Origin: Acidimicrobiales bacterium
GTDB lineage: Bacteria; Actinomycetota; Acidimicrobiia; Acidimicrobiales; Bin134
NCBI GenBank assembly: GCA_965200775.1
Contig: OZ241383.1
Coordinates: forward strand, 1,141,008-1,205,007
Reading direction: 5' to 3'
DNA length: 64,000 nucleotides
The translations under genes were made by a program, and so were the position numbers. A model generated the notes under the pieces. The model ran no database searches and was not told the origin of the DNA. It saw nothing but the letters and a program-made list of their open reading frames with translations. Position 1 is the first letter of the stretch. Each line of letters begins with the position of its first letter. This document shows positions 42,012 to 63,201 of the stretch, piece after piece.

Positions 42012-42153
42012 GACGGCAACCTAGCGCACCCGACCGGTGCTCAATGTGATGAACAGCGCCGTGAACTGGCATCCTTGGGGGGACTGCGCCTCCCGAGGAG
42101 CTCCCCGGGAAGGCAAAGCTTTCCCAACAACTCGGCTATCACTGGAGTGACCG

Positions 42154-43359
42154 ATGAACGACCGCTACACCATCATCTCAGCCGACTGCCATGCCGGCGC
42201 CAACCACGAGACCTACCGGGGATTCTTGGAATCGAAGTATCACGACCAGTTCGACGCGTGGCGGGGTAAGTACCGCAACCCGTTCCGCGACCTCCAGGAC
42301 GGCGGGCGGGTCCGCAACTGGGACAACGAGCGGCGGCTGGGCGACCTGTACGCCGACGGGCAGGTGGCAGAGGTGGTGTTCCCCAACACCGTGCCCCCGT
42401 TCTTCCCGAGCTTCATCCTATTCGCCCGTCCGCCCCGGGCCGACCAGCTCGAGCTGCGGCTGGCCGGGATCCGGGCGCACAACCGCTGGCTGGCCGACTG
42501 GTGCGCCCAGTACCCCGAGCAGCGGGCCGGCATCGGGCAGACGTTCCTGAACGACATAGACGAGGCCATCGCCGACGTGGAATTCATTGCTGCCAACAAC
42601 CTGCGTGGCGGGGTGCTCATCTCCGCCATCCCGCCCGACTGCGACGATCTGGCCCCCCTCTACGATCCGGTTTACGACCCGTTCTGGGCGGCGTGTCAGG
42701 ACCTCGGGGTTATCGTCAACAGCCACGGCGGTACCGGTGCGCCCAACTACGGCAAATACTCGGTGTCCGACCTGCTGTTCATCCACGAGGTGAGCTTCTA
42801 CTCTCATCGGCCCTTCTACCAGCTAATGCTGTCGGGGGTGTTCGAGCGGTTCCCCGAGCTCAAGTTCGTGATGACAGAGCAGGGGTGCGCTTGGCTGGTG
42901 GGGGCTCTGGCCCACATGGACGAGACCCTGGCCAAGATTCGTGACACCGGTCGGATGGGCGAGCTGCGCTACGACGACAATCACATCCTGCCCAGGAGCG
43001 CCACCGAGTACTTCCAGCAGAACTGCTGGGTAGGCATCAGTCAGCCCGGCCACGACGACGCCGCGGCTCGTGAGGTGCTGGGGGTCCACAAGGTGATGTG
43101 GGGTTCGGACTATCCCCACAACGAGGGCACCGGTCCTTTCACTCGCGAGCACCTGCGCCAGGTTTTCTGCGACACCGACCCCGTTGAACTCCAGCAGATC
43201 CTGGCCGGCAGCGCCGCCGATCTGTACGGCTTCGACCTCGATGCCTTGGCTCCCCTGGCTGCCCAGCACGGCCCGACCCATGCCGAAATCGCGGCCCCTC
43301 TGGAGGAGTTGCCCGACGAGCCCAACGAGGCCCTGCTGAAGAACGCCATCGCGGCCTAA
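42154..43359 (+). CDS. Amidohydrolase family protein (Amidohydro_2), paralogue 3
   Basis: 401 aa. Motifs IISADCHAG and WGSDYPHNEG. Confidence 0.8.
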   Translation: MNDRYTIISADCHAGANHETYRGFLESKYHDQFDAWRGKYRNPFRDLQDGGRVRNWDNERRLGDLYADGQVAEVVFPNTVPPFFPSFILFARPPRADQLELRLAGIRAHNRWLADWCAQYPEQRAGIGQTFLNDIDEAIADVEFIAANNLRGGVLISAIPPDCDDLAPLYDPVYDPFWAACQDLGVIVNSHGGTGAPNYGKYSVSDLLFIHEVSFYSHRPFYQLMLSGVFERFPELKFVMTEQGCAWLVGALAHMDETLAKIRDTGRMGELRYDDNHILPRSATEYFQQNCWVGISQPGHDDAAAREVLGVHKVMWGSDYPHNEGTGPFTREHLRQVFCDTDPVELQQILAGSAADLYGFDLDALAPLAAQHGPTHAEIAAPLEELPDEPNEALLKNAIAA

Positions 43360-43488
43360 TCCGACCCGGCGGGGCCTGCCTTGCTCCCCGTCAGATAACA
43401 GCGCTGGTGCTGCATTTCTGCGCCGACATCGCCTAGCCCATGAGAGCTAGCCCCGCCACGGTTTGAGGCAGCGAATTAGGCTGGCCCG

Positions 43489-44649
43489 ATGATCGTCGAT
43501 GTGGACACCCACTGGGAGATCACCGGGGCTTCAGCGGGTCTGGACCCCCTGAAGCCGTGGATTGATCAGATCCCCGACAACCGCACCCATCTCGCCAACG
43601 CCATCGCCGGCGACCTGCTCCACGTGCTGCCCGCCGAGCGCCGACCCGGACCTGCCGAACTCCTGCCCAAGCTGTTCGCCAAGGCCAAGAAATCCGGCGG
43701 ACCGGTAGTTCTTCACCCCCGCCACGACTCCACCTCGGCCGAGCGGGTGGCGTGGATGGACTCGGTCGGCATACACCACTGTCTCGTGAACCCCGGCGGC
43801 TACTGGCAGAAGCTCGACTACCTGAACCCCGCCGACCGGCCCGTCGCCGCCCAGCGGTGCAACGACTTTCTGATGGAACAGCTCTACGAACACCGCCACC
43901 GGCTCCACGCCGTGGCCACCATCGACTTCTCCGATCTCGATGCCGCCGTTCGCGAGCTTGAGAAATGCCGGGCGCGAGGGGCCCGAGCCTTCTTCCTCTA
44001 CACCTGCCGGGGCATACCGGCGGGCGGTGCCCCTGGCCACCCCGACTGGGACCGGGTTTGGGATGCTGCCGTCGACTTGGGCATGTTGGCGGTGATCCAC
44101 GTGGGCAACACCGAGTCGGACTTCTCCGGTTGGGCCGACATCGGCTGGGACCTCCCCGGCGGGGCCGGCGTCGGCGGGCTAATCCGCCTCGCCAACACCC
44201 AAAGGCTTCACGCTGCCCAGAACCTCATCGCCAGCCTGCTGTTCGGGGGCGTATTCCACCGCCACCCGAACCTCACCGTGCTCGTGGAGGAGATGCGAGC
44301 CGGATGGCTGCCCTGGTACGTGGCGACCCTGTCCCGCCAGTGCCTCTCCTCGCCGTCGCTGGGCGACTGGCCGTGGCCAGTGACCGGGGAGGAGATGCTG
44401 CACCGCAACCTGAGGCTCACTCCCCTACCCGGTTTCGGCGACACCGACGCCCTGGCAGTGCTGGCCGAGCTGCCCGACATGGTGGTGTTCTCCTCTGACT
44501 ACCCCCACCAGGAGGGAAACGCCGACCCCATCGAGTTGTACCGTCCCGCTCTCGACCGGCTCGACGATGACGTAAGGACCGCCTTCATGGGGGCCAACAT
44601 GGCCGACTGCTTCGCCCGCCTCGGCGATCCCCTCCCAGAAGGGTCCTGA
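43489..44649 (+). CDS. Amidohydrolase family protein (Amidohydro_2), paralogue 4
   Basis: 386 aa. Motifs IVDVDTHWE and FSSDYPHQEG. Confidence 0.75.
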   Translation: MIVDVDTHWEITGASAGLDPLKPWIDQIPDNRTHLANAIAGDLLHVLPAERRPGPAELLPKLFAKAKKSGGPVVLHPRHDSTSAERVAWMDSVGIHHCLVNPGGYWQKLDYLNPADRPVAAQRCNDFLMEQLYEHRHRLHAVATIDFSDLDAAVRELEKCRARGARAFFLYTCRGIPAGGAPGHPDWDRVWDAAVDLGMLAVIHVGNTESDFSGWADIGWDLPGGAGVGGLIRLANTQRLHAAQNLIASLLFGGVFHRHPNLTVLVEEMRAGWLPWYVATLSRQCLSSPSLGDWPWPVTGEEMLHRNLRLTPLPGFGDTDALAVLAELPDMVVFSSDYPHQEGNADPIELYRPALDRLDDDVRTAFMGANMADCFARLGDPLPEGS

Positions 44650-44721: not shown

Positions 44722-45876
44722 TCAGCGTCCGGCAGGCACCATGTAGAAGATGATTCCGCCGGGGGCGTCCTGAGCCTTGAGGGCATCCCGAGCGGCAAGC
44801 AGGGTCTTGCCGGCTTCGGTGTTCTCGAAGAACCACGACTCGGCTTGGCGGGCACCGGCTGTAGGACTGTCGGCCAGCTCCAGGGCGGCTTCCTGGTAGT
44901 AGGCCCGGATGTCGTGGGACACGGCCAGGGTGTCGAGCCGGGGGCCGTAGACGTCTTTCCAGTGCTCTCCGGCTATGACCCGCTCGAACTCGGCCAGCGC
45001 GCCGGGCACCTCATCGGCCTTGATCGACCGACCTACCTCGGTGGCACTCCGCCGAGCAACCGCACGGTCGTAAGCGGCCCGCAGACCCTGCGCCTCGTCC
45101 ACCGACGGGGACAAGTTGGGGTCGTAACGGGGCGGCAGGGTGCAAGACAGCGGGGTCTCGTCGGATTCGACAACATCGGGAAAATCCTCCAGCACCGGGC
45201 CCGAGGGGGCATCCAGCAAGTCGAACGCTGCACGCAGAACCCTCTGCTGGAACTCAGCGTCGCCAGGGACGCCCAGAGGCCGGCCCAAGGGGAACTCGCA
45301 GTACAGAGAGCGGGGAAGGTTCATCCTCTCGGCCACCGACCGCATAGCGGCCAGCACCACCGTGGCAATCCCCGCGGCTTCGAGAACATGAGCAAGCACA
45401 CCCACGGTGCGCGTACACAGCGGTCAAACCGGGGTCAGGATGGCCACGTCAACACCGTCGGCCCGTAGCTCGGCAGCGGCCGCCGGGCCGGTGTCCAGCC
45501 GCAGCTCCGAGACGGTGTCGGGCTGATTCCCGGCGAAGGACACATGGCGTGGAGCCACCGCCCCGATCACCCCGTCGGCGGCAAGCTCCTCCAAACGGTC
45601 TATGGGATACACCGAGTTGATGTCGAGGAGGAACGCGGAGCGGTCGAAGTTGGAACTCCAATGGCCCAGGATCAACTCTCTGTCGGCCCGGTCGATCACC
45701 CGGTAACCCGTGTCGGCCCTGTCGAACATCTCCTGGTCGGCTCGGTGCAACGCGGCGCTGGTCACGATGGCCACCGTGGCCTCGGCCAGCGGCGGGGGCG
45801 ACGCCAACGAAGGAGGATCGAACTCGGGCACCGTCTGACCGTCCCCGAACTGCCGCATCATCTGATCACTGGACAT
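44722..45876 (-). CDS. GrdB-family-like selenoprotein (in-frame UGA at 45424-45426 read as Sec, codon 151 of 384; U-P-L-C motif)
   Basis: Track ORFs 45424..45876 and 44722..45405 are in the same frame, separated by TGA plus 6 codons. Read-through gives ..GVDVAILTPV-U-PLCTRTVGVLAHVLEAAGIATVVL... The N-terminal half resembles the glycine/sarcosine/betaine reductase B (PF07355-like) layout, from memory. A stem-loop lies 3' of the UGA. Confidence 0.65.
45396..45412 (-). promoter_or_regulatory. SECIS-like stem-loop downstream of UGA
   Basis: mRNA GCGCAC-CGUGG-GUGUGC. A 6-bp stem (one G-U pair) and a 5-nt loop, starting 11 nt after the UGA. Confidence 0.45.
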
Positions 45877-45879
45877 ACT

Positions 45880-48880: not shown

Positions 48881-50578
48881 ATGCCTTTTCCCACCGATCT
48901 GGAGATCGCCCGGGGAGCGAACCTCCGCCCGCTGACAGAAATCGCCGAAACCGCCGGTATCCCCACCGAGCTGTTGGAGCCCTACGGAACCGGTGCGGCC
49001 AAGATCAGCCTTGACGCCGTTGACGCCATGACCGACCGGCCCCGCGCCCGGTATGTGGTGGTCACCGCCATCACCCCGACCCCGCTCGGCGAGGGCAAGA
49101 CCACCACCACCGTGGGGTTGGGCCAGGGGTTCGGGCACATCGGTAAACAGGCCACCATCGCCATCCGCCAGCCCTCCCTCGGGCCAACCTTCGGCATCAA
49201 GGGCGGCGCGGCCGGCGGCGGCTACAGCCAGGTGGTGCCCATGGAGCTGTTCAACCTGCACCTCACCGGCGACATGCATGCGGTGTCGGCGGCCCACAAC
49301 ATGTGCTCGGCCATGCTCGACGCCCACATCTTCCACGGCAACGAGCTGGGCCTCGACCTGCACAACATCACCTGGCGCCGGGTGGTGGACATCAACGACC
49401 GGGCCCTGCGCAACATCGTCCTCGGCCTGGGCGGGCGGCTCGACGGGGTGCCCCGGGAGAGCGGTTTCGACATCACCGCAGCCTCCGAGGTGATGGCCAC
49501 CCTGGCCCTGGCCACCTCCCTGTCCGACCTGCGGGCTCGCCTGGGCCGAATAGTGGTGGGCTACACCAAGGCCGGAACCCCGGTCACCGCCGAGGATCTC
49601 AAGGTGGCCGGCGCCATGGCCGTGCTGTTGAAGGACGCCCTCAAGCCCAACCTGATGCAGACCCTGGAGGGCGGTCCCGCGCTGGTCCACACAGGTCCCT
49701 TCGGCAACATCGCCACCGGTAACTCATCGATCGTGGCCGACCAAATCGGCATCCGGGCCGGCGATTTCCTGGTGACCGAGGCGGGGTTCGGCGCCGACCT
49801 GGGCGCGGAACGGTTCTTCAACATCAAGTGCCGCTACTCGGGTTTCGCGCCCGACGCTGCCGTGATGGTGGCCACGGTGCGGGGGCTGAAGGCCCACTCC
49901 GGCAACCACCGGATCGTGGCCGGCAGGCCCCTGCCCGAGGCGCTTCTGGCCGAGAACCCCGACGAGGTTCATGCCGGGGGCGACAACCTCCGCAAACACC
50001 TGTCCAATATGAAGGCTCACGGGGTTTCCCCGGTGGTAGCGGTGAACGCCTTCCCCGAGGACCACGACGCCGACCTGGCCGCCATCTCCGAGATCGCCGA
50101 GGAGTACGGGGCCCGGTGCGCCATCACCACCCACTTCGCCGACGGCGGTGCCGGAGCGGCCGAGCTGGCCGAGGCTGTGGCCGAAGCTGCCGAGGAGGAA
50201 AGCTCGTTCAAGGTGCTCTACGAGGACGAAATGCCGCTGCGCGACAAGATCAACACTGTGGCCACCACCGTGTACGGGGCCGACGACGTGGAGTACTCGG
50301 CCACCGCCAACCGGCAGTTGGACACCTACGAGGCAGCCGGTTTCAGCCACCTCCCGGTGTGCATCGCCAAAACCCACCTGTCCATCTCATCCAACCCGGC
50401 CCTCAAGGGCGCTCCCACCGGGTGGACCCTGCCGGTGCGGGAGGTTCGGGCCTCGGTGGGCGCTGGTTTCGTCTACCCTATCTGCGGCGACATGCGTACA
50501 ATGCCGGGTCTTGGCCGCGTACCGGCTGCCATGGGAATCGACATCGACGAGAACGGGGAAATCGTCGGATTGAGCTGA
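48881..50578 (+). CDS. fhs: Formate--tetrahydrofolate ligase
   Basis: ATG at 48881 (565 aa). Segments [20 protein letters not shown] and IAKTHLSIS. Confidence 0.95.
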
Positions 50579-50647: not shown

Positions 50648-52591
50648 ATGGCCAGGCGGGAAAGACTCACGGTGCCCATGGTCCGAGACCGGGGTGAACT
50701 GCGGGAAGCAACCTGGGATGAGGCCCTGGGCCGAGCCGCGGCCGGATTCAACCAGGTGCTGAGCGAGAACGGCCCCGGCGCTTTCGGCATGTTCAGTTGT
50801 TCCAAGGCCACCAACGAGATGAACTACATCGCCCAGAAGTTCATCCGCACCGTGGTCGGGTCGAACAACATCGACTCCTGCAACCGAACTTGACACGCTC
50901 CCTCGGTCGTCGGTCTGACGACAGTTTTCGGAGTCGGAGGGGGCACCAGCTCCTACCGGGAGGTGGAGGAAACCGAGGTGATCCTGCTGTGGGGATCCAA
51001 CGCCCGGGAAGCCCACCCCATCTTCTTCCACCACCTGCTCAAGGGGCTCGACAACGGGGCCACCATGTACTGCATCGACCCCCGGCACACCTCGTCGGCC
51101 CGCTTCGCCGACGTGTGGGTTGGCATCAACGTGGGCACCGACATCGCCCTGGCCAAAGGCATGGGCCGGGAGATCATCCGGGCCGGGCTGGCCGACCACG
51201 ACTTCATCACCCACTCCACCCAGGGCTACGAGGCATACGCCGCTTCGGCGGAGCCGTTCACCCCCGAGCGGGTGGCCGAGATCTGCGGAATCCCCGCCGG
51301 GGTGGTGGTGGAGATGGCCCACGCCTACGCCACCGCCGACAAGGCCCAGATCCTGTGGACCCTCGGTATCACCGAGCACCACACCGCCGTGGACAACGTG
51401 TTGTCGCTGTGCAACCTGGCTCTGCTCACCGGCCACGTGGGGCGGTGGGGTTCGGGGCTGGTCCCGCTGCGGGGCCAGAACAACGTGCAGGGGGGCGGCG
51501 ACATGGGGGCCATCCCAAACCGGCTCCCCGGCTTCGCCAACGTGGACGATCCCACGCTCCGGGCCCGCTTCGAGGCCTCCTACGGCCGGGCGCTCAACCC
51601 CGTTCCAGGCCTGCATCTGACCCTCATGTTCGAGGCCATGGAGCGCGGTGATTTGCGGGCGCTCTACGTGGTGGGCGAGAACCCCGCCGACTCCGAGGCC
51701 GACGTGGCCCACGCCCGTTCGCTGCTCGAAGGCCTCGACATCCTGGTGGTGCAGGACATCCTGATGACCCGCACAGCGGAGATGGCCGATGTGGTGCTGC
51801 CCGCCTCGGTGGCGTGGGCCGAGAGCGAGGGAACCGTCACCTCCAGCGAGCGACGGGTGCAACGGGTGAGACCGGCGGTGACCCCACCCGGCCAGGCCCG
51901 CCACGACATCGACATCCTCTGCGACATGGCCGAGGCCATGGGCGCTGAACTCGGCCCCCGCGACCCCCAGGCGGCGTGGGACGAGCTCCGGAGCCTCTCC
52001 CCGTGGCACCGGGGCATGACCTGGGAACGCCTCGAAGCCGATGGCGGGTTGCAGTGGCCCTGCCCCGACCAGGACCATCCCGGATCCCCCTTCCTCCACG
52101 ACTGGCTGTGGGCCGACGACCTGAACGGCCACGATCCGGCACCCTTCTCTGTGGTGGACCACCGGGGCCCCACCGAGGAGCTGAGCGACGATTACCCCTT
52201 GCGCCTCACCACCGGGCGATCCCTCGACTCCTACAACACCGGTGTGCAAAGCGGGCAGTACGACTCGCCGCTGCGGTTCGCCGGCCTGGAGCTGAACGCT
52301 CACGACGCCACATCGCTCGACATCGCCGACGGCGACCGGGTGCGGGTTAGCTCCCCTCGAGGTTCGGTGGAGATGAACGCCCGGGTGGCGTCGAGCCTGC
52401 CGCCAGGGTTGGCCTTCACCACCATGCACCACCCGGAACTGATCGACGTGAACCTGCTCACCAACCCCGACTGGGACCCAAAGTCGGGCACCGCCGAGTT
52501 CAAGGCGGCCGCGGTCCGGGTGGAACGGGTTGCCGCCTCCTCCCAGGCCGCCGTCTCTCAAGCTGCCGCAGCGGGAACCTCTGTTGGCTGA
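50648..52591 (+). CDS. fdhA: Formate dehydrogenase, molybdopterin catalytic part (Sec at TGA 50891-50893); lacks the Fe-S N-terminal region
   Basis: Track ORFs 50648..50893 and 50963..52591 are in the same frame. Read-through gives NIDSCNRT-U-HAPSVVGL, the canonical FDH Sec/Cys site. An fdhF-type SECIS follows. RBS-like AAGGGGGAAAT lies before the ATG. Confidence 0.85.
50906..50922 (+). promoter_or_regulatory. SECIS element (fdhF-type apical hairpin)
   Basis: GUCGUC-GGUCU-GACGAC, starting 12 nt after the UGA. The context UGACACGCUCCCUCGGUCGUCGGUCUGACGAC parallels the E. coli fdhF SECIS UGACACGGCCCAUCGGUUGCAGGUCUGCACC (recalled from memory). Confidence 0.75.
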
Positions 52592-54335
52592 TCTCCGTTT
52601 CGGGGCCGACCGGCCGACGCCCGCCGAACAAGCCGCCATCGACTCCGTGGTCCCCCCTTCCAAGGCGGCCACCGTTACCGAAACCGAGCGGGTGGTTCGC
52701 GCCGGCAGCACCCGCCGCCGGAGCCTTCGCCATCACCTTCTGCCCATGCTGCACTCCCTCCAGCACGAGATCGGCTGGATCAGCCCCGGCGGGCTGAACG
52801 GCGCCGCCGAGCGTCTGGGGGTCCCCCCGGCCGATGCCTACGGGGTGGCCACCTTCTACGAGCTGTTCCGCACCACCGACCCCGGCCACCGCGACGACGT
52901 GGTCCATGTGTGTGTGGACCCGGCCTGCGCTGTGGCCGGCAGCGCCGAGCTGAGGACGTCGCTGGAAGCGAGCGGTGCCAAAGTCCACGATAGCCCTTGC
53001 CTTGGTCAGTGCGAGCGAGCCCCGGCCCGGTTCATCCAGGGAGTGGGACGACCCGACCGGGTTCCCGCCGACGACACCGAAGACCCGACCCTGCCCCAAG
53101 CCGGCGATCCCGGCCTGCGGGTGTTGCGCCGGGTGGGGGTGGCCGATCCCACCGACCTGGGGGCCTACCGGGAACACGGCGGCTACCTGGCCCTGGCCGC
53201 CGCGGTGGAGATGGGCTCCCAAGCGGTGATCGCCGCGGTGAGCGACGCCGGGCTGTCGGGCCGGGGTGGGGCCGCTTTTCCCACCGGGGTGAAGTGGCGG
53301 GCCGTGGCCGACGCGCCGGGACCCGACAAGCACGTGGTGGCCAACTGTGACGAGTCGGAACCGGGCACCTTCAAGGACCGCATCATCTGCGAGCACGACC
53401 CGTTCTCGGTGGTGGAGTCGATGACGGTGGCCGGGTTGGCTACCGGTGCCACCCGTGGCTGGATCTACATCCGGGGCGAGTATCCCCGGGCGGCCGCCCG
53501 GCTGGAGAACGCCATCACCCAAGCCCGGTCAGCCGGTTTTCTGGGCGACGATGTGGCGGGCAGCGGCCACAGCTTCGATATCGAGTTGCGTCGGGGCGCG
53601 GGCGCCTACATCTGCGGCGAGGAGACCGCCCTGTTCAACTCCATCGAGGGTTTCAGGGGGGAGCCCCGCAACAAGCCCCCCTTTCCCACCACCCACGGCC
53701 TGTTCAACCAGCCCACCGCCATCAACAACCCCGAGACCCTTGTCAACGTGTTGGACATCGTCACCGGCGGTCCCGACGCCTACCGCTCGGTGGGCACCGA
53801 CCGCTCCCCCGGCACCCGGCTGTTCTGCCTGTCGGGCCGGGTGGCTGTGCCCGGCCTTTACGAGGTGCCCTTCGGGACCACCCTGGGCGACCTCATCGCT
53901 CTTGCAGGCGGGCCGACCGGCAACTTGTCCGCGGTGCTCCTCGGCGGGGCAGCCGGTATGTTCGTCGGCCCTGACACTCTCGAGATGCCCCTCACCCTGG
54001 AGGACACCCGTGAAGCCGAGGTTACCCTGGGTTCGGGTGTGGTCACGGTGTTCGACCACACCTGCGACATGGAAGCGGTGGTGGTGCGCATCGCCGAGTT
54101 CTTCCGGGACGAGTCGTGCGGCCAGTGCGTTCCCTGCCGGGTTGGAACCCAGCGCCAGCACGAGGTGCTGGTGGAGCTGCGCCGGTCGGTCGGGCCGCTG
54201 TCGCAGCCCCGGGCCGAACTCATCGAGGACATGGCCCGGGCCATGACCGATGCCTCCATCTGCGGCCTGGGCCACACAGCGGCCTCCGCGGTTCGCTCCG
54301 CGCTGGCCCTGGGTCTGATAGGAAACAGCCCATGA
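52584..54335 (+). CDS. NuoE-like / NuoF-like fusion (NAD(H)-binding diaphorase module of formate dehydrogenase, FdsG-FdsB-like)
   Basis: NuoE part: HHLLPMLHSLQHEIGWIS...GVATFYELF. NuoF part: GLSGRGGAAFPTGVKW, NCDESEPGTFKDR, ICGEETALFNSIEG and ESCGQCVPCRVGT. The start is uncertain (TTG 52530 or TTG 52584); both overlap the fdhA 3' end. Confidence 0.85.
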   Translation: MADLRFGADRPTPAEQAAIDSVVPPSKAATVTETERVVRAGSTRRRSLRHHLLPMLHSLQHEIGWISPGGLNGAAERLGVPPADAYGVATFYELFRTTDPGHRDDVVHVCVDPACAVAGSAELRTSLEASGAKVHDSPCLGQCERAPARFIQGVGRPDRVPADDTEDPTLPQAGDPGLRVLRRVGVADPTDLGAYREHGGYLALAAAVEMGSQAVIAAVSDAGLSGRGGAAFPTGVKWRAVADAPGPDKHVVANCDESEPGTFKDRIICEHDPFSVVESMTVAGLATGATRGWIYIRGEYPRAAARLENAITQARSAGFLGDDVAGSGHSFDIELRRGAGAYICGEETALFNSIEGFRGEPRNKPPFPTTHGLFNQPTAINNPETLVNVLDIVTGGPDAYRSVGTDRSPGTRLFCLSGRVAVPGLYEVPFGTTLGDLIALAGGPTGNLSAVLLGGAAGMFVGPDTLEMPLTLEDTREAEVTLGSGVVTVFDHTCDMEAVVVRIAEFFRDESCGQCVPCRVGTQRQHEVLVELRRSVGPLSQPRAELIEDMARAMTDASICGLGHTAASAVRSALALGLIGNSP

Positions 54336-55171
54336 GCGGCCCGCTCACCGAGACGGCGGTTGTCGTCCGGGTGGATGGCAACGAGGTTGCCGTGCCCGAG
54401 GGATCGACCATCCTCGACGCCTGCAACGAGGCCGGTGTGGAGACCCCCACCATCTGCTATGGCGACACGCTCACACCGGTGAACGTCTGCCGGGTGTGCG
54501 TGGTGGAACTCGACGGCAGCCGGGCCTTGGTCCCCTCCTGCTCCCGCCCGGTGGAGGAAGGCATGGTGGTTCACACCGACAGCGAGCGGGTCCGCCACAG
54601 CCGCCGGATGGTGCTGGAGTTTCTGGCCACCGGGGTGGACCTGACCCAGGCTGACGATCTCGGTCGGTGGTCCGAGCAGTACGGAGCCGACCCCGACCGC
54701 TACACCCCCGACGCCGAGAAGATGAACGAGCCGGTGCGGGTGCAGGACAACCTCTACATCCGGGACTACGGCAAGTGCGTGCTGTGCTACCGCTGTGTGG
54801 AGGCCTGCGGCGACGACGCCCAGCACACCTACGCCATCTCGGTGGCGGGGCGGGGTTTCGGGGCTCGCATCTCCACCGAGTTCGACGTGGCCCTGCCCGA
54901 CTCAGCCTGCGTGTACTGCGGGAACTGCGTGGCGGTGTGCCCCACAAATGCCCTCCAGTTCAAGACCGAGTACGACCTGCGCGAGGCTGACGACTGGCGA
55001 CCCGACGACCAGTCGGTAACCCAGACGGTGTGCTCCTACTGCGGGGTGGGCTGCAACCTGGAGTTGCACGTGCAGGACAACCGCATCGTCAAATGCACCT
55101 CCCCCGACGACCACGACGTAACCCGGGGCAACCTCTGCATCAAGGGCCGCTTCGGCTGGACCTACGTGTAA
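54332..55171 (+). CDS. Formate dehydrogenase alpha, N-terminal Fe-S part (NuoG-like 2Fe-2S and 4Fe-4S domains plus the MopB 4Fe-4S motif)
   Basis: ATGA overlap with the upstream gene (279 aa). Motifs CYGDTLTPVNVCRVCVVE, CVLCYRCVEAC, CVYCGNCVAVCP and CSYCGVGCNLELHV. It ends ..NLCIKGRFGWTYV*, exactly where the 50648 ORF (RERLTVPMVRDRGELREATWDEAL) would continue a full-length subunit. Confidence 0.85.
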   Translation: MSGPLTETAVVVRVDGNEVAVPEGSTILDACNEAGVETPTICYGDTLTPVNVCRVCVVELDGSRALVPSCSRPVEEGMVVHTDSERVRHSRRMVLEFLATGVDLTQADDLGRWSEQYGADPDRYTPDAEKMNEPVRVQDNLYIRDYGKCVLCYRCVEACGDDAQHTYAISVAGRGFGARISTEFDVALPDSACVYCGNCVAVCPTNALQFKTEYDLREADDWRPDDQSVTQTVCSYCGVGCNLELHVQDNRIVKCTSPDDHDVTRGNLCIKGRFGWTYV

Positions 55172-55191
55172 GGGTGGCGCGGCCGCGCTCC

Positions 55192-56196
55192 CTAACCCTC
55201 GTCCTCGTCCTCTAGGTCTGGGTCCTCAAGATCAGGGTCCCAGAGCTCTTCGTCTAGCTCATCCACAAGCGGCCCAATGGTCTGCAAGAGCTGAGCGCAC
55301 TGATCGGCCATCCATTTGTGCATCTCGGGGTGGCTCTTGTTGTCCCTGACGGTGCCAAGTCCATTCACTTTGATCCGACAGCCGAGCTTGCCCTCCATCT
55401 CGTCCCAGACCAGAGAATTCGCAAGTGTCTTGGGTAGTCGGTGTGAGCTTTGGCGCAAAGCTCGGAAAATCCGGTCGTTCACCGCACTGTCCGTCGTCCC
55501 AATGTATATCTCACTGAAAATGCCGCCGCGGGAGAAGCCAGCAACCAATTTCACGCTCTTTCTCACTGTCTTGAGTTCCAAATAATGGCGGTAAGGCGCA
55601 TTGCGTCTTCTTGTGAGATTGGGGTGCTGGGCATGAACCACCTCAAGGAAGCCAGTCCAAAATCTCATGTACGAGGTCTCTCTCTCCGTGCGATCGCTCG
55701 CCCGCGTGACAGACCGAACCTGTGCCTTCCAGTTGCTCGGGCTCGACACCACCCGAAAGATGGGCGCCACTTTGGAGTTGCCGATGCGGCCAACTCGCAC
55801 CTCAACGCCGAAGAAGCGCGTGTCGCCGTCCGAAACGTCGTTTAGGAACTCCAGCGCCTGATGGTGTTCATCACGGAAGGATGGAGAGACCCAGACAATG
55901 GTTCTGGCATCGGTTCCAGCGGCGTACGTCAGCAGTTGGCTGAGATGGCGGTGGTCGGTCTCCTCAAGCTGGTTCTCGACGATCAGCGGACGCTGATTCG
56001 TCTCATCGGTGCCGAACAAGTCGACCGCATAGCGCCCGACTGCATGCTCCCGGCCGTGGAGCGCCAGATCGATCCCAAGCAGGTCGCCCAAGTACTCCTC
56101 GTTCTCGAGCAACCATGGCGTGAAGTCCCCGGCCTCGTTCGACCACACCTCCCGAGGGTCGAGGTATTCAAGCCGTCCAAGCGGCTCCTCCGCCAT
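55192..56196 (-). CDS. DUF4268-type protein with an N-terminal PD-(D/E)xK-like nuclease module
   Basis: ATG at 56196 preceded by GGAGG (334 aa). Motif VENQLEETDHRHLSQLLTYAAG. Acidic C-terminal tail. Lower G+C than the core. Confidence 0.6.
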   Translation of the reverse strand: MAEEPLGRLEYLDPREVWSNEAGDFTPWLLENEEYLGDLLGIDLALHGREHAVGRYAVDLFGTDETNQRPLIVENQLEETDHRHLSQLLTYAAGTDARTIVWVSPSFRDEHHQALEFLNDVSDGDTRFFGVEVRVGRIGNSKVAPIFRVVSSPSNWKAQVRSVTRASDRTERETSYMRFWTGFLEVVHAQHPNLTRRRNAPYRHYLELKTVRKSVKLVAGFSRGGIFSEIYIGTTDSAVNDRIFRALRQSSHRLPKTLANSLVWDEMEGKLGCRIKVNGLGTVRDNKSHPEMHKWMADQCAQLLQTIGPLVDELDEELWDPDLEDPDLEDEDEG

Positions 56197-56291
56197 ACCT
56201 CCAGGGTACCGGCACTGGCATCCGCTCCCAAACGTGGCAAACCGCGACCGCAGCGAGGAGCCAGTAGTGGGTCGTCGCGTCGCTGGGTGGG

Positions 56292-56798
56292 TCAAGGGAT
56301 GACGATGTGGGCGATGTCCTCAATCAGGTCGCCACCGCTGGTGAAGAGGCGGTGCTCGCTGTCGGCCACCTCGACGCGCACCGAGTGGTGGCCGGGCTCA
56401 TGCATCTCCACGACACCCTCGGTATCGTACAGTCGACCCTGTTTCTCGCCGTTTACGTAGATGTGGAAGTGTCCCTGCACCTTCCCCAGCTCCGTGGTGG
56501 CGGCGGTAACGGCAGCGGTGAGGCGGTTCCAAGGCCTGGCCGCACAGCGAGGAACGCAAACCACGCCCCAAACCGCCCCGAGCACTAGCCCACGACCAAT
56601 CCACCACGCGCCGACCCTCGAACCGCCGAGCGCGAGCCCACTACCTACCCACCAGGCGCCGACCCAGGGACTCCCCCGACGAAGGCGCTTGTGGCCAACG
56701 CCCGGGTGCCGCGCGAGGCGTCCGACCGCGTTGTCCCCCCGTGCGACCGTCCGTCCGGTGACCTCGCACGCAGCCCCTGCATCGCCACCCGATCGCAT
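56292..56798 (-). CDS. Hypothetical membrane-anchored protein with a small His-rich C-terminal domain
   Basis: 168-aa ORF with ATG start. Duplicated GAWW(V/I)G.GL.LG hydrophobic segment, then GHFHIYVNGEKQ...HEPGHHSVRVEV. The true start is uncertain. Confidence 0.35.
   Translation of the reverse strand: MRSGGDAGAACEVTGRTVARGDNAVGRLARHPGVGHKRLRRGSPWVGAWWVGSGLALGGSRVGAWWIGRGLVLGAVWGVVCVPRCAARPWNRLTAAVTAATTELGKVQGHFHIYVNGEKQGRLYDTEGVVEMHEPGHHSVRVEVADSEHRLFTSGGDLIEDIAHIVIP
56580..56675. repeat. Imperfect in-frame 48-nt tandem duplication inside the hypothetical gene
   Basis: 56580-56627 versus 56628-56675, aligned by eye. It encodes the duplicated GAWWxGxGLxLG segment. Confidence 0.75.
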
Positions 56799-56843
56799 GG
56801 CTGATGATCATTTCGATCTAATCTGAGGTATCTTGCTGATCGC

Positions 56844-57667
<824 letters not shown>

Positions 57668-57669
57668 CA

Positions 57670-58295
57670 ATGGAGCGGGACGAGGCGACAGCTCGGCTCA
57701 AGGAGCTGATTGGATGCGACCTGGTTGAGGTTGCCCGTAAGCACCAGGTCGTCATCGAGCGTGACGGCAAGATCAACAAGGGATGGAAGGGCCACACTCT
57801 TGAACGACACCTCGGCCTTCCACTCAACTCCTGCCAAGCTCCCAACTTTGGCTCTTGGGAGCTCAAGCAGATCTCGCTCAAGAGACTCAAGAATGGACTC
57901 CTAGCAATAAAGGAGACAATGGCCGTAACCATGATCGATCCCCAAAACGTCTTGATCACCGACTTCGACGACAGTCATCTCTTGCGCAAACTGAGCAGAG
58001 GTCTGCTAGTTGCGGTAATCGCGACAGCACTGCAGAAGCCGGGAAGCTTGTCCACTCGGTGTCACCCATCGACGTTCCCGAGGGTTCTGAGGTCTACAAG
58101 ATCATCAGAGACGACTACGAACTGGTCCGCATGCAAATTCGCCGAAGTGGATTCGAGTCGCTAACCGGGCGCATGGGGACCTACATCCAGCCGCGAACGA
58201 AGGGTGCAGGGCACGGAAGCACCTCACGCGCCTTCTATGCCCGGAAGGAGTTCCTCGGACGGTTCGTCAGGCTAGGTGACGTCGAGTGGCGATGA
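57670..58295 (+). pseudogene. Type II restriction endonuclease, MutH/Sau3AI - MvaI/BcnI-like, frameshifted near 58000-58030
   Basis: ATG 2 nt after the methyltransferase stop. The N-terminal part (track 57670..58164) has GKINKGWKGHTLERHLGLPLNS.Q.P.F..WELK. The C-terminal part (track 57855..58295) has GTYIQPRTKGAGHGSTSRAFYARKEF. The two overlapping frames imply a -1 shift. Confidence 0.6.
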
Positions 58296-59123
58296 AGGCT
58301 GCTGGTGCTGCCAGAGGGTGCTGATGGGCAGGGCCCAGAGGCGGTCGGCTAGGGGGAGGGTGGCTAGGCCGGTGTGGAGGACTATGCCGGCGAGGAAATG
58401 GTCGCCGGTGTGGTCTCGAAGCCAGGCCAGGTGGCGGGCGTCGTCGAAAGAGGGTGCTGCGGTGGCTTTGATCTCGAAGGCGATCAGGCGCTGGGCGTTG
58501 AGCTCGGCGACCACGTCGAACTCGTGGCGGCCGTGGTGCTAGCGGAGGTGGTAGAGGCGGCAGCGGTGTTCGCTGGCGCTCGCCTGTGCCCTCAGCTGAG
58601 CGACGACAAAGGTCTCGAGCAGCCGCCCTAGGAGGTTGCCGTCGCGCATGGCGGTGTCGGCGGTGCTGCTGGTCACCGAGGCCAACAGCGAAGAGTCGAC
58701 GAGGAACCGCTTAGGCGTGAGGGACAAACGCTTGAGCAGGTTCGATGTCCAGGCGGGCAGCTCGTCGACGATGTGCAGCCGGCCCAGCAGCTCCAGATAG
58801 CGCAGCATGGTGCGACGGTTGATGCCAGCAGCCTCAGCGAGGGTAGCGTCGTCGGTCACCCCGGCTGAGTTCAGCGCGTACGCCTCGGAGAAGCGCCCGA
58901 GCCTGACGTCGTCGTAGTTGCCGCCCGCGGTCTCGGAGCCGCGTGTGACGATCTCGTTGACGTAGGTCTCCAGCCACAGGCGCCGGGCCGGTTCGAGCAA
59001 CCGTTCGATGCACGACGCCACAGTGACCGACTGCACAGATTTGACAGCTCTGAGTACCACAATTTGACACCTACGAGTACCGACCTCCGACGCCCCTCCC
59101 CGCCTCTGCCGGGGAAATGTCAC
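58272..59123 (-). pseudogene. DUF4143-type AAA ATPase remnant (5'-truncated, in-frame TAG at 58539-58541)
   Basis: Track ORFs 58539..59123 and 58272..58514 share a frame (..RLYHLR*HHGRHEFDVVAELN..). Only the C-terminal half of the family layout is present (..RRLWLETYVNEIV...INRRTMLRYLELL...PAWTSNLLKRL). Confidence 0.65.
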
Positions 59124-59128
59124 ACCCG
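59108..59128. repeat. Left copy of an inverted repeat of about 20 bp (ccggggaaatgtcacacccgg)
   Basis: The reverse complement of 59997-60018 (ccgagggaaagtgtcacacccc) matches, with two 1-nt indels. Confidence 0.7.
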
Positions 59129-59301
59129 GTGCTTAGCGTCAAACAGCGGCCAGTGGGCTTAGGGATGTCGCAGGTGGGTTGAACACCCCGTGGGAACTCG
59201 CGATTTGCGTTGCATGGATAGTCCCACAGGGTTATCCTGGCTTGAATCCTCCCCGCCTGGCCTGCTAGCAGGGCATGGCGGGGGTTTATCGTTTCAGGCC
59301 C

Positions 59302-59934
59302 ATGTCCAAAACGCGAGTCGTCGTCTTCATCGACTACCAGAACGTCTACCACTCTGCGAGGGAGCTGTTCGGAGGGCCAGGGAGGGCCCATCCGTCCATC
59401 GGGAATGTGGACCCGTTGAAATACGGGCAGATGCTTTGCGACCTTGGCAAGGCAAAAGACCCCAACCGGGCCCTCCAGAGCGTACGCGTATACAGGGGTA
59501 GGCCGGTCCGCGGTGAAGGGCACGAGAAGGTTTGCTGAGCATTCGACCGTCAGGTCGCCAGATGGCGGAGAACCTCAGGCGTGGAACTGTTCACTCGACC
59601 ACTGAGGTACTACCCAGCCATAAGCGATACCGGGCAGCGCTACAGACGTGGTGAAGAGAAAGGCGTGGACGTGATGATGGCGTTGGACATCGTCGTCGAA
59701 GCGATCAAGGATGCATACGATGTCGCGATCGTGGCCACCGCTGATAGCGACTTACTTCCAGCAGTGGAACACCCCCTTGCTGCCAAGAAGCGCGTTGAAA
59801 CTGCTACATGGTGGGCTCGCAAATCACCCCGCGGCCAACTGAGAGTCCCGAGCCGCAAGATCTGGAACCACAACCTCGACAAGAGCAAATTCGACATTGT
59901 GCGAGACGACACCGATTACCTTGCTCTCCCCTGA
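59302..59934 (+). pseudogene. NYN (LabA/PIN-like) domain protein with an in-frame TGA at 59536-59538
   Basis: MSKTRVVVFIDYQNVY... continues in the same frame after the TGA (..EKVC*AFDRQVARW..RPLRYY..EKGVDVMMALD..ATADSDLLPAV). The track splits it into 59275..59538 and 59581..59934. Confidence 0.65.
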
Positions 59935-59996
59935 CCCAAGGCTCCTCACGACACCTCGGGTCTCAGGCCCAGGACCGATTTCGGCAAACCACTAGA

Positions 59997-60018
59997 GGGG
60001 GTGTGACACTTTCCCTCG
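59997..60018. repeat. Right copy of the inverted repeat flanking the NYN gene
   Basis: See 59108-59128. Confidence 0.7.
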
Positions 60019-60050
60019 GCCAACAGCTGAGCGCCAGAGTTCACTCCTTC

Positions 60051-60577
60051 GGTAGTTGGTTAACCTGGTTGTTCCGGTTATTGCAGTGAATATCCAAAGT
60101 TCTAGGTATTGTCTAGTGTTTGTCTGGAATTGCCAGTTTTTTCGGTTGATATTGTTACTGGGGTCGGTAGACTACATGGCATGGATTTAGGGCTCCTCAC
60201 CAGGGACAACACCAATACTCAGGCCACCGAGAGGTTTGGCGCTGCGCCGGCGGATGATGGGTTGGGCGGGCTGGTTGATGTTGATCCGATGGAGTTGGAT
60301 TCAGCAGAGGTAGCCAAGCTGATCTTGCAAGTCGACTCGACGCGTCGAAAGCTCGACGGTTTGCTCACCGTGTTGTTGGGCCGGTTCGGTGACCTCGAAG
60401 GCGAAGACGCCGTTGTGGAGTTGTGCCGGCAGTTTGGGGTGGGCCGTCACAAAGCCCGCCGTCAAGCCAAAACCGCGTCAATCCTCAAAGACCTGCCCTA
60501 CACGCTGGAGGCTTCAAAGGACGGGTGGATCACCATCGACCACGCCCAAGTAGTCGGCTAATCCCACCAAAGAGCCC
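60051..60577. repeat. DUF222/HNH repeat element, copy 2, left arm
   Basis: Matches 32596-33122 with a handful of substitutions (for example gaacct versus aatact). It ends at the transposon target site. Confidence 0.9.
60109..60561 (+). pseudogene. DUF222/HNH gene copy 2, 5' part (same TAA stop as copy 1)
   Basis: The 150-aa ORF is identical to copy 1 except EP versus NT at residues 36-37. Confidence 0.8.
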
Positions 60578-60603
60578 GGGGCTTATATCGGATGGTGCCC
60601 AAG
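60578..60603. repeat. Terminal inverted repeat, left (ggggcttatatcggatggtgcccaag)
   Basis: Exact reverse complement of 63176-63201. Confidence 0.95.
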
Positions 60604-60608
60604 CACTC

Positions 60609-60731
60609 TCACTCACGGGTTCGCAGCACGGCATCCGCCAGCTCCTCGGGGGTGCAGTCAAAACGAAACACCTCATCAGGATCGTAAAGGTGCTCCAGCT
60701 CCGGCGGTATGGGATCTTCTTCTGGTGTCAT
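60609..60731 (-). CDS. Small acidic ORF (40 aa) inside the transposon
   Basis: ATG at 60731 preceded by GAAGGAGA. Sequence MTPEEDPIPPELEHLYDPDEVFRFDCTPEELADAVLRTRE. Below the ORF-track length cut-off. No recognised family. Confidence 0.35.
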   Translation of the reverse strand: MTPEEDPIPPELEHLYDPDEVFRFDCTPEELADAVLRTRE

Positions 60732-60742
60732 AGCCGTCTCCT

Positions 60743-62148
60743 TCATCGCATATGACCCAGTTTCGCATTCTGCCTACGCAGTCCTGTCAGCGTGTAGATA
60801 TTGCTTTTCAGCTTATTGCAAGGCCCGCACAACAGTATGCGGTTTGTGATGTGGTTCATGCCGCCTTCGGATCGGGGAATGTTGTGGTCCAACTCCAGAT
60901 AGCGGGGATCGTCGAACTCGCGGTCGCACCCCTGACACTTCTGGCCCTCCTGAGCAATGAGGTGGTTGTACATCTCAGCACGACTCCATTTAGGGCCTTC
61001 TGGCTCCTTCACACGTTCCTTGACGCGTAGGAACGGCGAGCCAACCTCGCCACCGTCGGTTCTAGCAGGAGGCTCAGTGGAGTATGTAACCTTTCCCAGT
61101 ATCCCAGTTATGTCCTTCAACCGATCTACTACCACATTATGAGCACCATCCCAAATGTCCGCTCCAACCCACGACCTTTCCAGCTTCTCGGCAGCCACAC
61201 AGGTCGTAGCACAACCAGCAAATGGGTCGAACACCACGCCACCCTTCAGTGTCCCCGTCTCGATGATTTGATAGTATAGGTTCAACGGCTTTTAGTGGGC
61301 CAGAGATATGGCTCTTTGGCCTTCTGTTTGGATCCCTTCTTCCGAATAGGGGTGAACTCGGTCCACCAGTCAGGTCCAGTCGTCCCCCTGTTCTCGTCAA
61401 GCCACACTTCGTTCAAATCATTCGGCACCGACTTGAGTCCTGCGAACACACCGGGATTAGTGTCCTTCAAGCGTTGATAGGTGATCTGTCCACTGGCATC
61501 AAAGTACGGCCCATACCGCTTCCTGGTTGACTGTGAGAGCGGTGCCATCGCCACTTCGCCTACGACACACGATTTGTTATCTTTCGCATACCACAGGATC
61601 AGGTCGTGGGTTCTCTTGTAGTAGTCGGTGTTCCTCCGTCCTGCCGGATCGGTGTAGCACCACACGATCTCGTTGCGGAAGTTTTTGTGCCCGAACACCG
61701 CATCCAGCGTGATCTTGAGATAGTGGCTGGCTGTGGGGTCGCAGTGCAGGAACAAATTGCCGGTGGACTTCAACAGCCGGTGCATCTCAATGATACGGAC
61801 AGCCATAAAACATATGTATGCTCCCATACTGTCCGAGTGTGCATAGCGGGCAGATTCGATGGCCTCAAGCAAATCCGGGTGGTCGTCTGCGATTTGGTCT
61901 ATCCAGTCGCTGTGGACATCATGCTCCCACGACCACCGATCTTGGAACTTTCCGCCAACCTCCAAACTATCGGGGGTGGCGTGGAAATCACGTCCCTTGT
62001 TGAACGGCGGATCGGTGGCGATCAGATCGAGCGTTTCGCTGTTCATACCGCGCATGACCGCCAGGTTGTCGTTGTGGAAAAGCGTGCGGTTCTCCCAATT
62101 CGGTTCGGCCATTATACTGCCAACTCCTCCATGCACCTTCTGGCCCAC
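60743..62148 (-). pseudogene. DNA methyltransferase (DPPF ... PTKS ... DPFAGCATT) fused to a C-terminal HNH nuclease domain, split by a 1-nt frame change at 61282-61285
   Basis: Track ORF 61282..62148 ends ..YLWPTKSR*. ORF 60743..61285 begins (L)NLYYQIIETGTLKGGVVFDPFAGCATT and ends with CQGCDREF..LELDHNIPRSEGG.NHITNRILLCGPCNKLK. The junction mRNA is AGC CGT TGA ACC. Confidence 0.75.
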
Positions 62149-63034
62149 ACCCCGTTCTCGATCAACTGCTCGTAGGTGAGCCTCTTGTGTTCCATACAGC
62201 GCACCATCCCGCCCATCTGGTCGACTGTGTCTTTCGGACGCTCGTTGTGGCGGTGCTCGAATTCTGCCACGTAGCGGTGCAGATGCTCTTCCGACATCTT
62301 GTGGTATGTCCCGTGGTATCCCCTCTTGAGCATGGCCCAGAAACTTTCCATCCCGTTGGTGTGGGCCATCTCGTCAACATACTGGCCCGTGGAGTGGCTC
62401 ACCGAGCGATGGCCGTAGCCCATGCGCGACAAGGGCAGGTAGCCCCTAGCCTCGTCCGTGAACACTGACGACCCCTTGTAGCGTGGTCGGCCACCATACC
62501 CGTCAATGTTCCTGCAGTGATGTCGGGCACCACGCGTGCAGCCACCCGCCCAGTCTCACGGTCCCTCACACCTGCCACAATAGCCTTCCCGACCGGACCG
62601 CCGGCGGCTGTCATCCTCTTATCGGCGTGCTTGTTGCGCTCCAAGCCGCCCACGTAGGTCTCGTCGGCCTCTAGCGTCGAGCTCATCAACGGATCCCCGC
62701 CCGCCATTGCCTCGCGTAGCCTGTGCAAGAGGAACCACGCGGCCTTCTGGCCGATACCCAGATCTCGGTGCAACTTCATAGACGACACCCCCTTCAGGCT
62801 GGTGGACACGATGTAGATCGCCAGCGCCCACGTCTGGTAGCCCAGGTTGGAGCACTCCATCACCGTCCCAGTCCGCACGCTGAACCGCCCGCGGCAGTCG
62901 CGGCACCGGAACGGCATCGTCCTATGCTTCGCACCTGATAGCACGTCCACGCTCCCACACTTGGGGCAGACCACCTTGTCAGGCCAGCGGCGCTTCACAA
63001 GCCACTTGTGGGCCTTCTCACCGGTCGGGAGCAT
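62112..63034 (-). pseudogene. IS1595-family transposase with a frameshift at a G4 run (about 62472-62479)
   Basis: N-terminal zinc-ribbon CPKCGS...CRDCRGRF and the start of the DDE domain (track 62399..63034). The rest (..VFTDEARGY..GYGHRSVSHS..HTNGMESFWAMLKRG..) lies in the -1 frame (track 62112..62465). Confidence 0.8.
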
Positions 63035-63175
63035 CCTAACGCCTGCACCAAGGTCATCCCGTCACGGTCTGCTCGGCCCGGCGCTTTCTTCTTCACTCTG
63101 TCCATTCCGACACACTACGGACAGCGAGTGACAGTTTATCTGTTTCGCCTAGTCAGACACAGTTTTCAATGTCAT

Positions 63176-63201
63176 CTTGGGCACCATCCGATATAAGCCC
63201 C
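63176..63201. repeat. Terminal inverted repeat, right (cttgggcaccatccgatataagcccc)
   Basis: Exact reverse complement of 60578-60603. Confidence 0.95.

Follow-up and report, generated by a model that had tools for sequence, protein, structure and literature searches.

A predicted formate dehydrogenase of Acidimicrobiia with its alpha subunit encoded in two permuted pieces around a NuoE-NuoF gene

Metal-dependent formate dehydrogenases (FDH) are intensively studied as CO2-reducing catalysts. In the FdsABG(D) enzymes of R. capsulatus and C. necator (6TGA/6TG9, 6VW7, 9WXB) the alpha subunit FdsA is one chain, in which a HoxU-like module of about 250 amino acids is joined to an FdhF-like module of about 700 (PMC7171172). 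Here we analyse a 64,000-nucleotide stretch of DNA from a sponge-associated Acidimicrobiales bacterium (assembly GCA_965200775.1, contig OZ241383.1, positions 1,141,008 to 1,205,007 of the forward strand), hereafter the window, in which the counterpart of FdsA is encoded in two pieces and in swapped order. The catalytic piece (50648..52591; 647 codons including a predicted selenocysteine, Sec) comes first, a gene fusing NuoE and NuoF (NuoEF, the diaphorase module; 52584..54335) follows, and the Fe-S piece with the N-terminal part of alpha (54332..55171; 279 amino acids) comes last, all on the plus strand. The coordinates and ends of the two pieces and their permuted order around the NuoE/F gene are as an earlier reading of this sequence, the original prediction, had described them.

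Cryo-electron microscopy of the R. capsulatus enzyme traces a direct chain from bis-molybdopterin guanine dinucleotide through the clusters A1 (the equivalent of FS0), A2, A3, A5 [2Fe-2S] and B6 to flavin mononucleotide (FMN), with A4 and G7 off the pathway and A4 at the interface of the FdsA dimer (PMC7171172). The locus in the window shares with FdsABG(D) the cofactor-binding elements, the predicted on-path chain and a diaphorase of the NuoE/NuoF type. It differs in that alpha consists of two polypeptides, broken after the FS0 segment, and in that the genes run catalytic piece, NuoEF, Fe-S piece in place of fdsG-B-A-C-D. The active-site position of Cys386 in FdsA is taken by a predicted Sec, and the off-path dimer-interface cluster A4 (ligands His117, Cys121, Cys124 and Cys130 in FdsA; PMC7171172) is absent. 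The NuoE/NuoF-type subunits, separate in FdsABG, are fused, and neither fdsC nor fdsD adjoins the operon.

The fusion itself has a precedent in the tungsten enzyme Fdh1AB of Methylobacterium extorquens AM1 (7E5Z, 7VW6), whose beta subunit is likewise a NuoE-NuoF fusion; 7e5z_B (MeFDH1 beta) is the only solved chain that matches both halves of the fusion in the window (query 43-572 to chain 44-554). Fdh1A matches both pieces of alpha, but is a single polypeptide of about 990 amino acids with an active-site Cys, whereas the alpha subunit described here is split, permuted and carries a predicted Sec. The closest solved relatives of the catalytic piece, at 417-492 bits, are FdhF-type enzymes: E. 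coli FdhH (1AA6), the FdhF of the T. kivui hydrogen-dependent CO2 reductase (HDCR; 7QV7) and F420-dependent FdhA (7BKB, 9T1S). They share with it the Sec/Cys-His pair and RGQNNVQG, and FdhH is also a selenoprotein, but the catalytic chain of each has an FS0 segment of its own (up to about residue 60), which the catalytic piece lacks. To our knowledge, in all structurally characterised MopB enzymes with FS0 the cluster is on the chain that binds the pterin cofactor.

A MopB fold made from two reassembling polypeptides is known from formylmethanofuran dehydrogenase (FwdB/FwdD, 5T5I), and FwdB is a weak match to the catalytic piece. The FwdB/FwdD split removes the C-terminal pterin-capping domain and leaves FS0 on the catalytic chain. 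In the window, by contrast, it is the N-terminal FS0 segment that is removed, and the C-terminal PF01568 domain stays in place. The replaced C-terminus of Fwd has been noted before (PMC7171172). HoxU of the NAD+-reducing [NiFe] hydrogenases (NF005745) provides a different parallel, a free-standing Fe-S subunit resembling the N-terminal part of NuoG and paired with a NuoE/F-type diaphorase. The Fe-S piece matches NF005745 over its first ~210 residues, with a score of 138.7 bits that falls short of the model cut-off of 333; HoxU has no MopB Fe4S4 segment, whereas the Fe-S piece has residues 228-279 in addition and lacks the His-ligated cluster. In the bifurcating enzymes BfuABC and HydABC, the NuoF-like subunit bears an extra C-terminal ferredoxin domain with two [4Fe-4S] clusters. 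Pfam finds no extra C-terminal Fer4 domain in the NuoEF fusion, and the bifurcating HydB and NfnB chains among its top PDB hits match over the NuoF core only (query 180-574).

The two pieces of the alpha subunit

The two halves read as one contiguous FdsA/FdhF-type chain, as had been proposed. On the solved FdsA chains 6tg9_A and 9wxb_B, the Fe-S piece (its residues 9-278) aligns with 24-302 and the catalytic piece (its residues 3-627) with 305-933. The NCBIfam model of the FDH alpha subunit, TIGR01591 (672 positions, cut-off 666.25 bits), is by far the best NCBIfam model for the catalytic piece and is covered by the two pieces in succession, positions 1-48 on the Fe-S piece and 50-672 on the catalytic piece. 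The catalytic piece also aligns to residues 60-691 of E. coli FdhH, with U-H and PLRGQNNVQG conserved, and bears the active-site signature of FDH: a predicted Sec followed by His, the Arg in RGQNNVQG, and the domains PF00384 and PF01568. The PF00384 match covers profile positions 1-352, beginning at the very first position, and the catalytic piece has the domains that bind the Mo/W-bis-pterin but is devoid of Fe-S cluster motifs. The FS0 segment is therefore not on the polypeptide of the pterin domains; its motif is invariant but stands in trans.

The Fe-S piece contains the Pfam domains Fer2_4, Fer4_7 and Molybdop_Fe4S4. Its N-terminal part is a HoxU-like module with a plant-type [2Fe-2S] motif and two ferredoxin-type [4Fe-4S] motifs, recognised by Fer2_4 and two CxxCxxCxxxC motifs, as befits a module with clusters A2, A3 and A5. 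The FS0 segment follows (residues 228-279, CxxCxxxC...C-I-K-G), and Molybdop_Fe4S4 spans positions 2-53 of its 55-position profile. The Cys ligands of A5, A2, A3 and A1 are retained and are invariant in a 10-sequence alignment of concatenated pieces, and the FS0 motif CxxCxxxC...C-[IVL]-K-G is found in 89/89 Fe-S pieces of the family. The A4 motif is missing: the Fe-S piece has a gap opposite the FdsA segment DHPLDCLTC...C, and 81/82 members lack Cys in the stretch that leads from the [2Fe-2S] motif to the first ferredoxin motif. Jointly, the two pieces hold every element of contiguous FdsA except this off-pathway cluster.

The original prediction placed the split inside the MopB domain. The break point coincides exactly with the Pfam border between PF04879 and PF00384, just after the FS0 cluster-binding segment, and lies within the structural MopB/FdhF-like module. 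The Fe-S piece ends in ...NLCIKGRFGWTYV before its stop codon, and the catalytic piece begins with MARRERLTVPMVRD; across the break between ...CIKGRFGWTYV and this N-terminus only about 4 residues are replaced in comparison with contiguous relatives. These relatives, found in a search of a 50%-identity representative library with the Fe-S piece that returned mostly fragments and frameshifted calls, are 37-44% identical to it, and the forms of 350-380 amino acids in the same library are contiguous alpha subunits truncated at Sec. FS0 lies in the first ~60 residues of all solved FdhF/FdhA chains, and the catalytic piece starts at the equivalent of residues 57-64. Because the break falls about 50 residues inside the FdhF-like module and not at the joint of the HoxU-like and FdhF-like modules, the comparison of sequences points to a fission and translocation that were secondary and became fixed early in the lineage, and speaks against a never-fused ancestral state.

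A never-fused state would mean that the HoxU-like Fe-S protein and the FdhF-like catalytic protein have always been separate in this lineage. FdsA is visibly composed of two such modules, of ~250 and ~700 amino acids (PMC7171172), and FdhF-type chains give the catalytic piece better scores (492-417 bits) than FdsA does (411 bits); such a history would account for both observations. However, the boundary is at FdsA 303-305, past FS0 and not at the joint near residue 250. In an unfused ancestor FS0 would have stayed with the catalytic protein, whereas positions 1-48 of TIGR01591 are on the Fe-S piece. We regard an origin of this kind as decidedly improbable.

The complementarity of the two ends to within a few residues also brings to mind that the halves might be rejoined into one alpha polypeptide by split-intein trans-splicing or translational recoding. 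There is, however, no room for intein halves, as the tails beyond the conserved ends (0-25 residues in the Fe-S piece and 3-30 in the catalytic piece) are short, variable and unconserved. Pfam finds only FDH domains, and the halves are in permuted order with a gene of 1.75 kb between them. Such rejoining has next to no probability.

The NuoE-NuoF fusion that separates the halves contains the domains 2Fe-2S_thioredx, Complex1_51K, SLBB and NADH_4Fe-4S, which provide for a [2Fe-2S] cluster, an FMN/NAD(H) site and a [4Fe-4S] cluster, and has NCBIfam matches to both NuoF and NuoE. Read from the sequence, it keeps Cx4C...Cx3C in the NuoE-like domain and SCGQCVPCR in the NuoF-like domain, and the NADH_4Fe-4S (N3-cluster) domain forms its C-terminal end (residues 517-592 of 601). 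It matches the FdsB chains 6vw7_B and 6tg9_B, so that a diaphorase of the NuoE/NuoF type is adjacent to both alpha pieces. The earliest possible start is at 52530; the TTG at 52584 is most likely the actual one. The stop of the catalytic piece overlaps this TTG by 8 nt, with the same overlap in two related loci (L007 and L010), and NuoEF and the Fe-S piece share an ATGA in which the start of the latter overlaps the stop of the former. Such overlaps, present at both junctions, fit coupled translation of stoichiometric partners. A promoter and terminator scan of 48.5-55.4 kb found nothing and is uninformative at the ~68% GC of the genome.

Conservation across Acidimicrobiia

The split layout is shared across a wide range of related bacteria. 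We surveyed 80 GTDB species representatives, including members of Ca. Poriferisocius, Ca. Aldehydirespirator and Ilumatobacteraceae. In about 70 of the 80 species loci, which are those with enough upstream DNA, one strand carries the catalytic piece, NuoEF and the Fe-S piece, with two exceptions (L071 and L042) that are considered below. At least 69 related species share the split alpha genes in swapped order. All of the best 120 homologues of the Fe-S piece, which are 74-88% identical to it and belong to Acidimicrobiia (Candidatus Poriferisocius among them), are stand-alone proteins of 276-307 amino acids, apart from one of 392; PF00384 has no hit in any of them.

The order catalytic piece, NuoEF, Fe-S piece also holds in three genomes looked up individually, on four contigs of 3.0, 5.4 and 2.0 Mb and 16 kb. 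The gene calls there are of 81-98 and 534-565 amino acids for the catalytic piece, 581-591 for NuoEF and 279-294 for the Fe-S piece. The flanking genes are mutually unrelated among these genomes; downstream neighbours are 4HBT, HNH and folD in one case and OmpA and PEP carboxylase in others. The original prediction had named a contiguous gene in relatives as the outcome that would expose the split as an artefact; synteny instead shows the split layout recurring, and none of the close relatives examined has a contiguous alpha gene.

The boundaries of the pieces are as constant as their order. In all compared loci the Fe-S piece ends 0-25 residues past KGRFGWxYV, and the start of the catalytic piece invariably lies a few residues (3-30) ahead of RLTxPxVR, with no in-frame Fe-S motif upstream. 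The ratios of nonsynonymous to synonymous substitution rates (dN/dS, Nei-Gojobori) against close relatives are 0.150 for the catalytic piece, 0.143 for NuoEF and 0.150 for the Fe-S piece, and by this measure all three genes are under purifying selection. In a few loci the tblastn matches lie in adjacent pieces in different frames, for NuoEF in L021 and L089 and for the catalytic piece in L056, which suggests frameshifts, due either to pseudogenes or to errors in long reads; L089 also differs in where its catalytic piece starts.

As the window comes from a metagenome-assembled chromosome, with the exact Fe-S piece on a contig of 3,144,089 bp, a misjoin in the long-read assembly could in principle have produced the permuted order. 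However, 13 Logan short-read contigs from nine runs carry the exact products of 81 or 279 amino acids and match the window collinearly, at 99.6-100% identity, in two intervals. The first, 44648-53630, takes in fhs, the catalytic piece and NuoEF, and the second, 53597-60080, takes in NuoEF, the Fe-S piece and the low-GC island. Independent short-read assemblies thereby reproduce the layout across 50.6 kb and 55.2 kb, where the original prediction had called for a check of assembly support. The same order is present in dozens of other assemblies, and the chance of an assembly artefact is negligible.

The in-frame TGA codon and the low-GC island

Both pieces had been described as having clean start and stop signals. 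This is so for the Fe-S piece, at 54332..55171, but not for the catalytic piece, in which an in-frame TGA at 50891..50893 divides the reading frame into open reading frames (ORFs) at 50648..50893 and 50963..52591. The TGA stands in the context NIDSCNRT-TGA-HAPS. In alignment it falls on Sec140 of E. coli FdhH, with His141 as the next residue, and opposite Cys in FdsA and in T. kivui FdhF. All related loci that cover the site have TGA (71/71), and none has TGC or TGT.

A hairpin resembling a selenocysteine insertion sequence (SECIS) follows at 50906..50922 (GUCGUC-GGUCU-GACGAC), with its first base 15 nt past the first base of the TGA, a stem of 6 bp and the loop GGUCU. It is near-invariant in 24 diverse loci, synonymous sites included, with 98% of cells paired, and its pair 18-30 varies in a compensatory manner, with two changes from CG to GC and one from CG to UA. 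Extending the stem downwards (columns 8-11 with 40-43) was rejected, as variation in columns 9 and 42 mostly leads to mismatches. The loop is similar to that of the SECIS in E. coli fdhF, GGUC. Folded as a single sequence, the stretch after the TGA does no better than shuffled sequences (minimum free energy z = -0.5), and since this fold is unexceptional and no Rfam family is available, the support for the hairpin is comparative. The alignment of the TGA with Sec140 of FdhH, together with the conserved SECIS-like hairpin, identifies it as a predicted selenocysteine codon and the catalytic piece as a predicted selenoprotein. Database gene callers cut the catalytic gene at the TGA: its best 120 homologues are all 528-565 amino acids long and bear generic names where they are named at all.

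The window holds one more candidate for Sec decoding. A minus-strand gene at 44722..45876 has a weak match to GRDB (PF07355, selenoprotein B family, E 1.8e-6), and its ORF continues past an in-frame TGA at 45424-45426 to join the next ORF of the same frame (...AILTPV-TGA-PLCTRTVG..., with a UxxC motif). The same two gene calls occur on the independent contig L091. This is a probable second selenoprotein gene, judging by its reading frame and family match, and its presence would be consistent with Sec decoding.

An island of low GC content (54-60%) that extends over 55172..64000 begins 1 nt past the stop codon of the Fe-S piece, and there is no further same-strand gene in the window after the Fe-S piece. 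The adjacency to the island boundary at 55172, noted in the original prediction, is real, but it is incidental, since relatives without the island end the gene at the same place. The island contains a DUF4268 gene, an N6/N4 methylase and a MutH/MvaI-BcnI-like endonuclease that are likely a restriction-modification pair, a DUF4143 gene and an NYN-domain gene. The DUF4268 gene is broken up into shorter ORFs in two strain variants, L003 and L004, whose alignments to the window contain two indels. A DUF222 element of two ORFs (150 and 227 amino acids) is present twice in the window, at 32593..33913 and at 60048..60577 plus 63199..64000, with 98.7-99.9% identity. A 2.6 kb insert (60578-63198) that splits the second copy contains a DNA methylase in two ORFs, one of them fused to an HNH nuclease domain.

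The position of the Fe-S piece next to an island with restriction-modification and mobile-type genes, and the in-frame stop in the catalytic reading frame, could be taken for signs of recent decay, in which an insertion of the island or a translocation broke an intact fdsA and left the halves as non-functional relics. However, the same break and order are found in about 70 species genomes with differing downstream neighbours, dN/dS is about 0.15 in both halves, and the in-frame stop is always a TGA at the Sec position, accompanied by the conserved hairpin. A lesion of this sort is extremely unlikely. The original prediction had offered two readings, a functional split-subunit architecture and the trace of a rearrangement. 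The first is strongly favoured by the same split and order in about 70 species, the fixed boundaries, dN/dS of about 0.15, the overlapping cistrons, and the invariant Cys and Lys of FS0. The second holds insofar as a rearrangement did happen, is ancient and became fixed, but it is neither a lesion of this genome nor linked to the island.

The predicted enzyme and its significance

We consider it highly probable, from the domain content and the conservation of the locus, that the operon encodes a soluble NAD(H)-linked, Sec-containing Mo/W formate dehydrogenase of the FdsABG/Fdh1AB kind, with the alpha subunit fissioned and its halves permuted. The three polypeptides would assemble into one FdsABG-like unit. 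In the catalytic piece, the Mo/W-bis-pterin site with its Sec ligand would oxidise formate, and the electrons would cross an intermolecular interface to the FS0 [4Fe-4S] cluster (A1 of FdsA), beside Lys271 at the C-terminal end of the Fe-S piece. The counterpart of Lys271 in FdhH is the lysine that links FS0 and the pterin. From FS0 the predicted path leads through the two ferredoxin-type clusters and the [2Fe-2S] cluster (the equivalents of A2, A3 and A5) to the [4Fe-4S] cluster of NuoF, FMN and NAD+, and the reverse direction would be CO2 reduction.

The gene fhs for formate--tetrahydrofolate ligase (48881..50578, plus strand; Pfam FTHFS, E 1e-250) ends 69 nt before the catalytic piece and is possibly co-transcribed with it; a gene call of 565 amino acids on the independent contig L091 maps to the same place. 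A gene with DAO, GCV_T and GCV_T_C domains, of the dimethylglycine/sarcosine dehydrogenase type, lies at 25917..28580 and fits a context of C1-unit oxidation. In view of fhs upstream and of this gene elsewhere in the window, the enzyme likely serves to oxidise tetrahydrofolate-bound C1 units via formate to CO2, which would yield NADH. The operon of L007 has folD nearby. The window also contains four clustered Amidohydro_2 genes (38057..44649) and an FrhB/FdhB-like, F420-related gene (30172..31380).

Several observations weigh against the assignment. Taken alone, the catalytic piece scores 614.3 bits with TIGR01591, below the cut-off of 666.25, and complex formation and the delivery of FS0 in trans are predicted by homology only. 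No fdsC, fdsD or fdhD-like gene adjoins the operon, an FdsD-like small protein not having been specifically searched for. The 64-kb window contains none of selA, selB, selC and selD, ARAGORN finds no tRNA in it, tRNA-Sec included, and an Rfam scan of the window at gathering thresholds gives no hit, over the hairpin or elsewhere. Three related loci also deviate. L042 (951..4630) has two ORFs of 613 amino acids between the catalytic piece and NuoEF, and in L071 (341..4187, on a contig of 4.5 kb) the Fe-S piece comes after a repeat-rich protein of 844 amino acids, with neither NuoEF nor a catalytic piece upstream. In the distant relative L098 (GCA_033854255.1, JAWOKL010000087.1, 4658..8864) the Fe-S piece is 52% identical and the order of catalytic piece, NuoEF and Fe-S piece is kept; its catalytic piece, of 518 amino acids, has the active site NNVDCGAGPGHSPG, with no Sec or Cys before the His, and is without PF01568. 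The L098 system may be a degenerate or repurposed version. This locus adjoins multihaem cytochrome and Rieske/cytochrome b genes.

These deviating loci bear on whether the genes encode two separate systems, in which the Fe-S piece and NuoEF form a HoxEFU-like diaphorase or hub that serves other partners, and the catalytic piece, as a MopB enzyme free of clusters such as DorA or TorA, works with another electron carrier or docks transiently, for example in dependence on selenium. The resemblance of the first ~210 residues of the Fe-S piece to HoxU and to the N-terminus of HydA would fit such an arrangement, and MopB enzymes without FS0 do exist. The Fe-S piece occurs in another context in L071, two genes are accommodated between NuoEF and the catalytic piece in L042, and L098 has kept the order even though its catalytic piece has lost Sec/Cys and PF01568. 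Against this, every one of the 89 Fe-S pieces has kept the FS0 segment, a MopB-specific feature, complete with its four Cys and its Lys, and we know of no role for this segment in the absence of a pterin domain. One FdsA chain accommodates both pieces with neither gap nor overlap, and they occur together in nearly every locus. Two separate systems of this kind are accordingly improbable, and the single split enzyme is the reading we prefer.

Within the reading of one split enzyme, a more tentative proposal, which we think unlikely as a whole, is that the catalytic module docks reversibly on a HoxEFU-like hub, so that FDH activity would be set by assembly and selenium supply. The fission might have been fixed because it uncouples the inefficient Sec-dependent translation of the catalytic module from the scaffold of the Fe-S piece and NuoEF: termination at UGA would give a harmless peptide of 81 amino acids, and not an Fe-S fragment of 360 amino acids able to poison NuoEF. 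This would make the system the first natural MopB enzyme to receive FS0 and the electron-conduit lysine from another polypeptide.

We found no published description of this split in the searchable full-text literature. The kind of enzyme we rate as known; as new we rate the variant, which combines the fission after FS0, the permuted order, the predicted Sec throughout the family, the loss of A4 and the fused NuoEF. The class Acidimicrobiia is abundant in sponge and other metagenomes, with one cluster of catalytic-piece homologues found on 130 contigs.

The interface of FS0 and the pterin can, on the present reading, be intermolecular, as a bacterial class keeps FS0 on a separate protein with all parts under selection. 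Such a class would offer a natural system for the part of FS0 in folding, cofactor insertion and electron exit, for whether a minimal, cluster-free Sec catalytic module can be made and re-docked for engineering, and for whether the cost of Sec recoding shapes subunit architecture. The names of the pieces in databases are generic ('2Fe-2S iron-sulfur cluster-binding protein', 'YjgC'). Owing to these names and to the truncation at TGA by gene callers, the capacity of Acidimicrobiia for formate oxidation is likely under-called in metabolic reconstructions.

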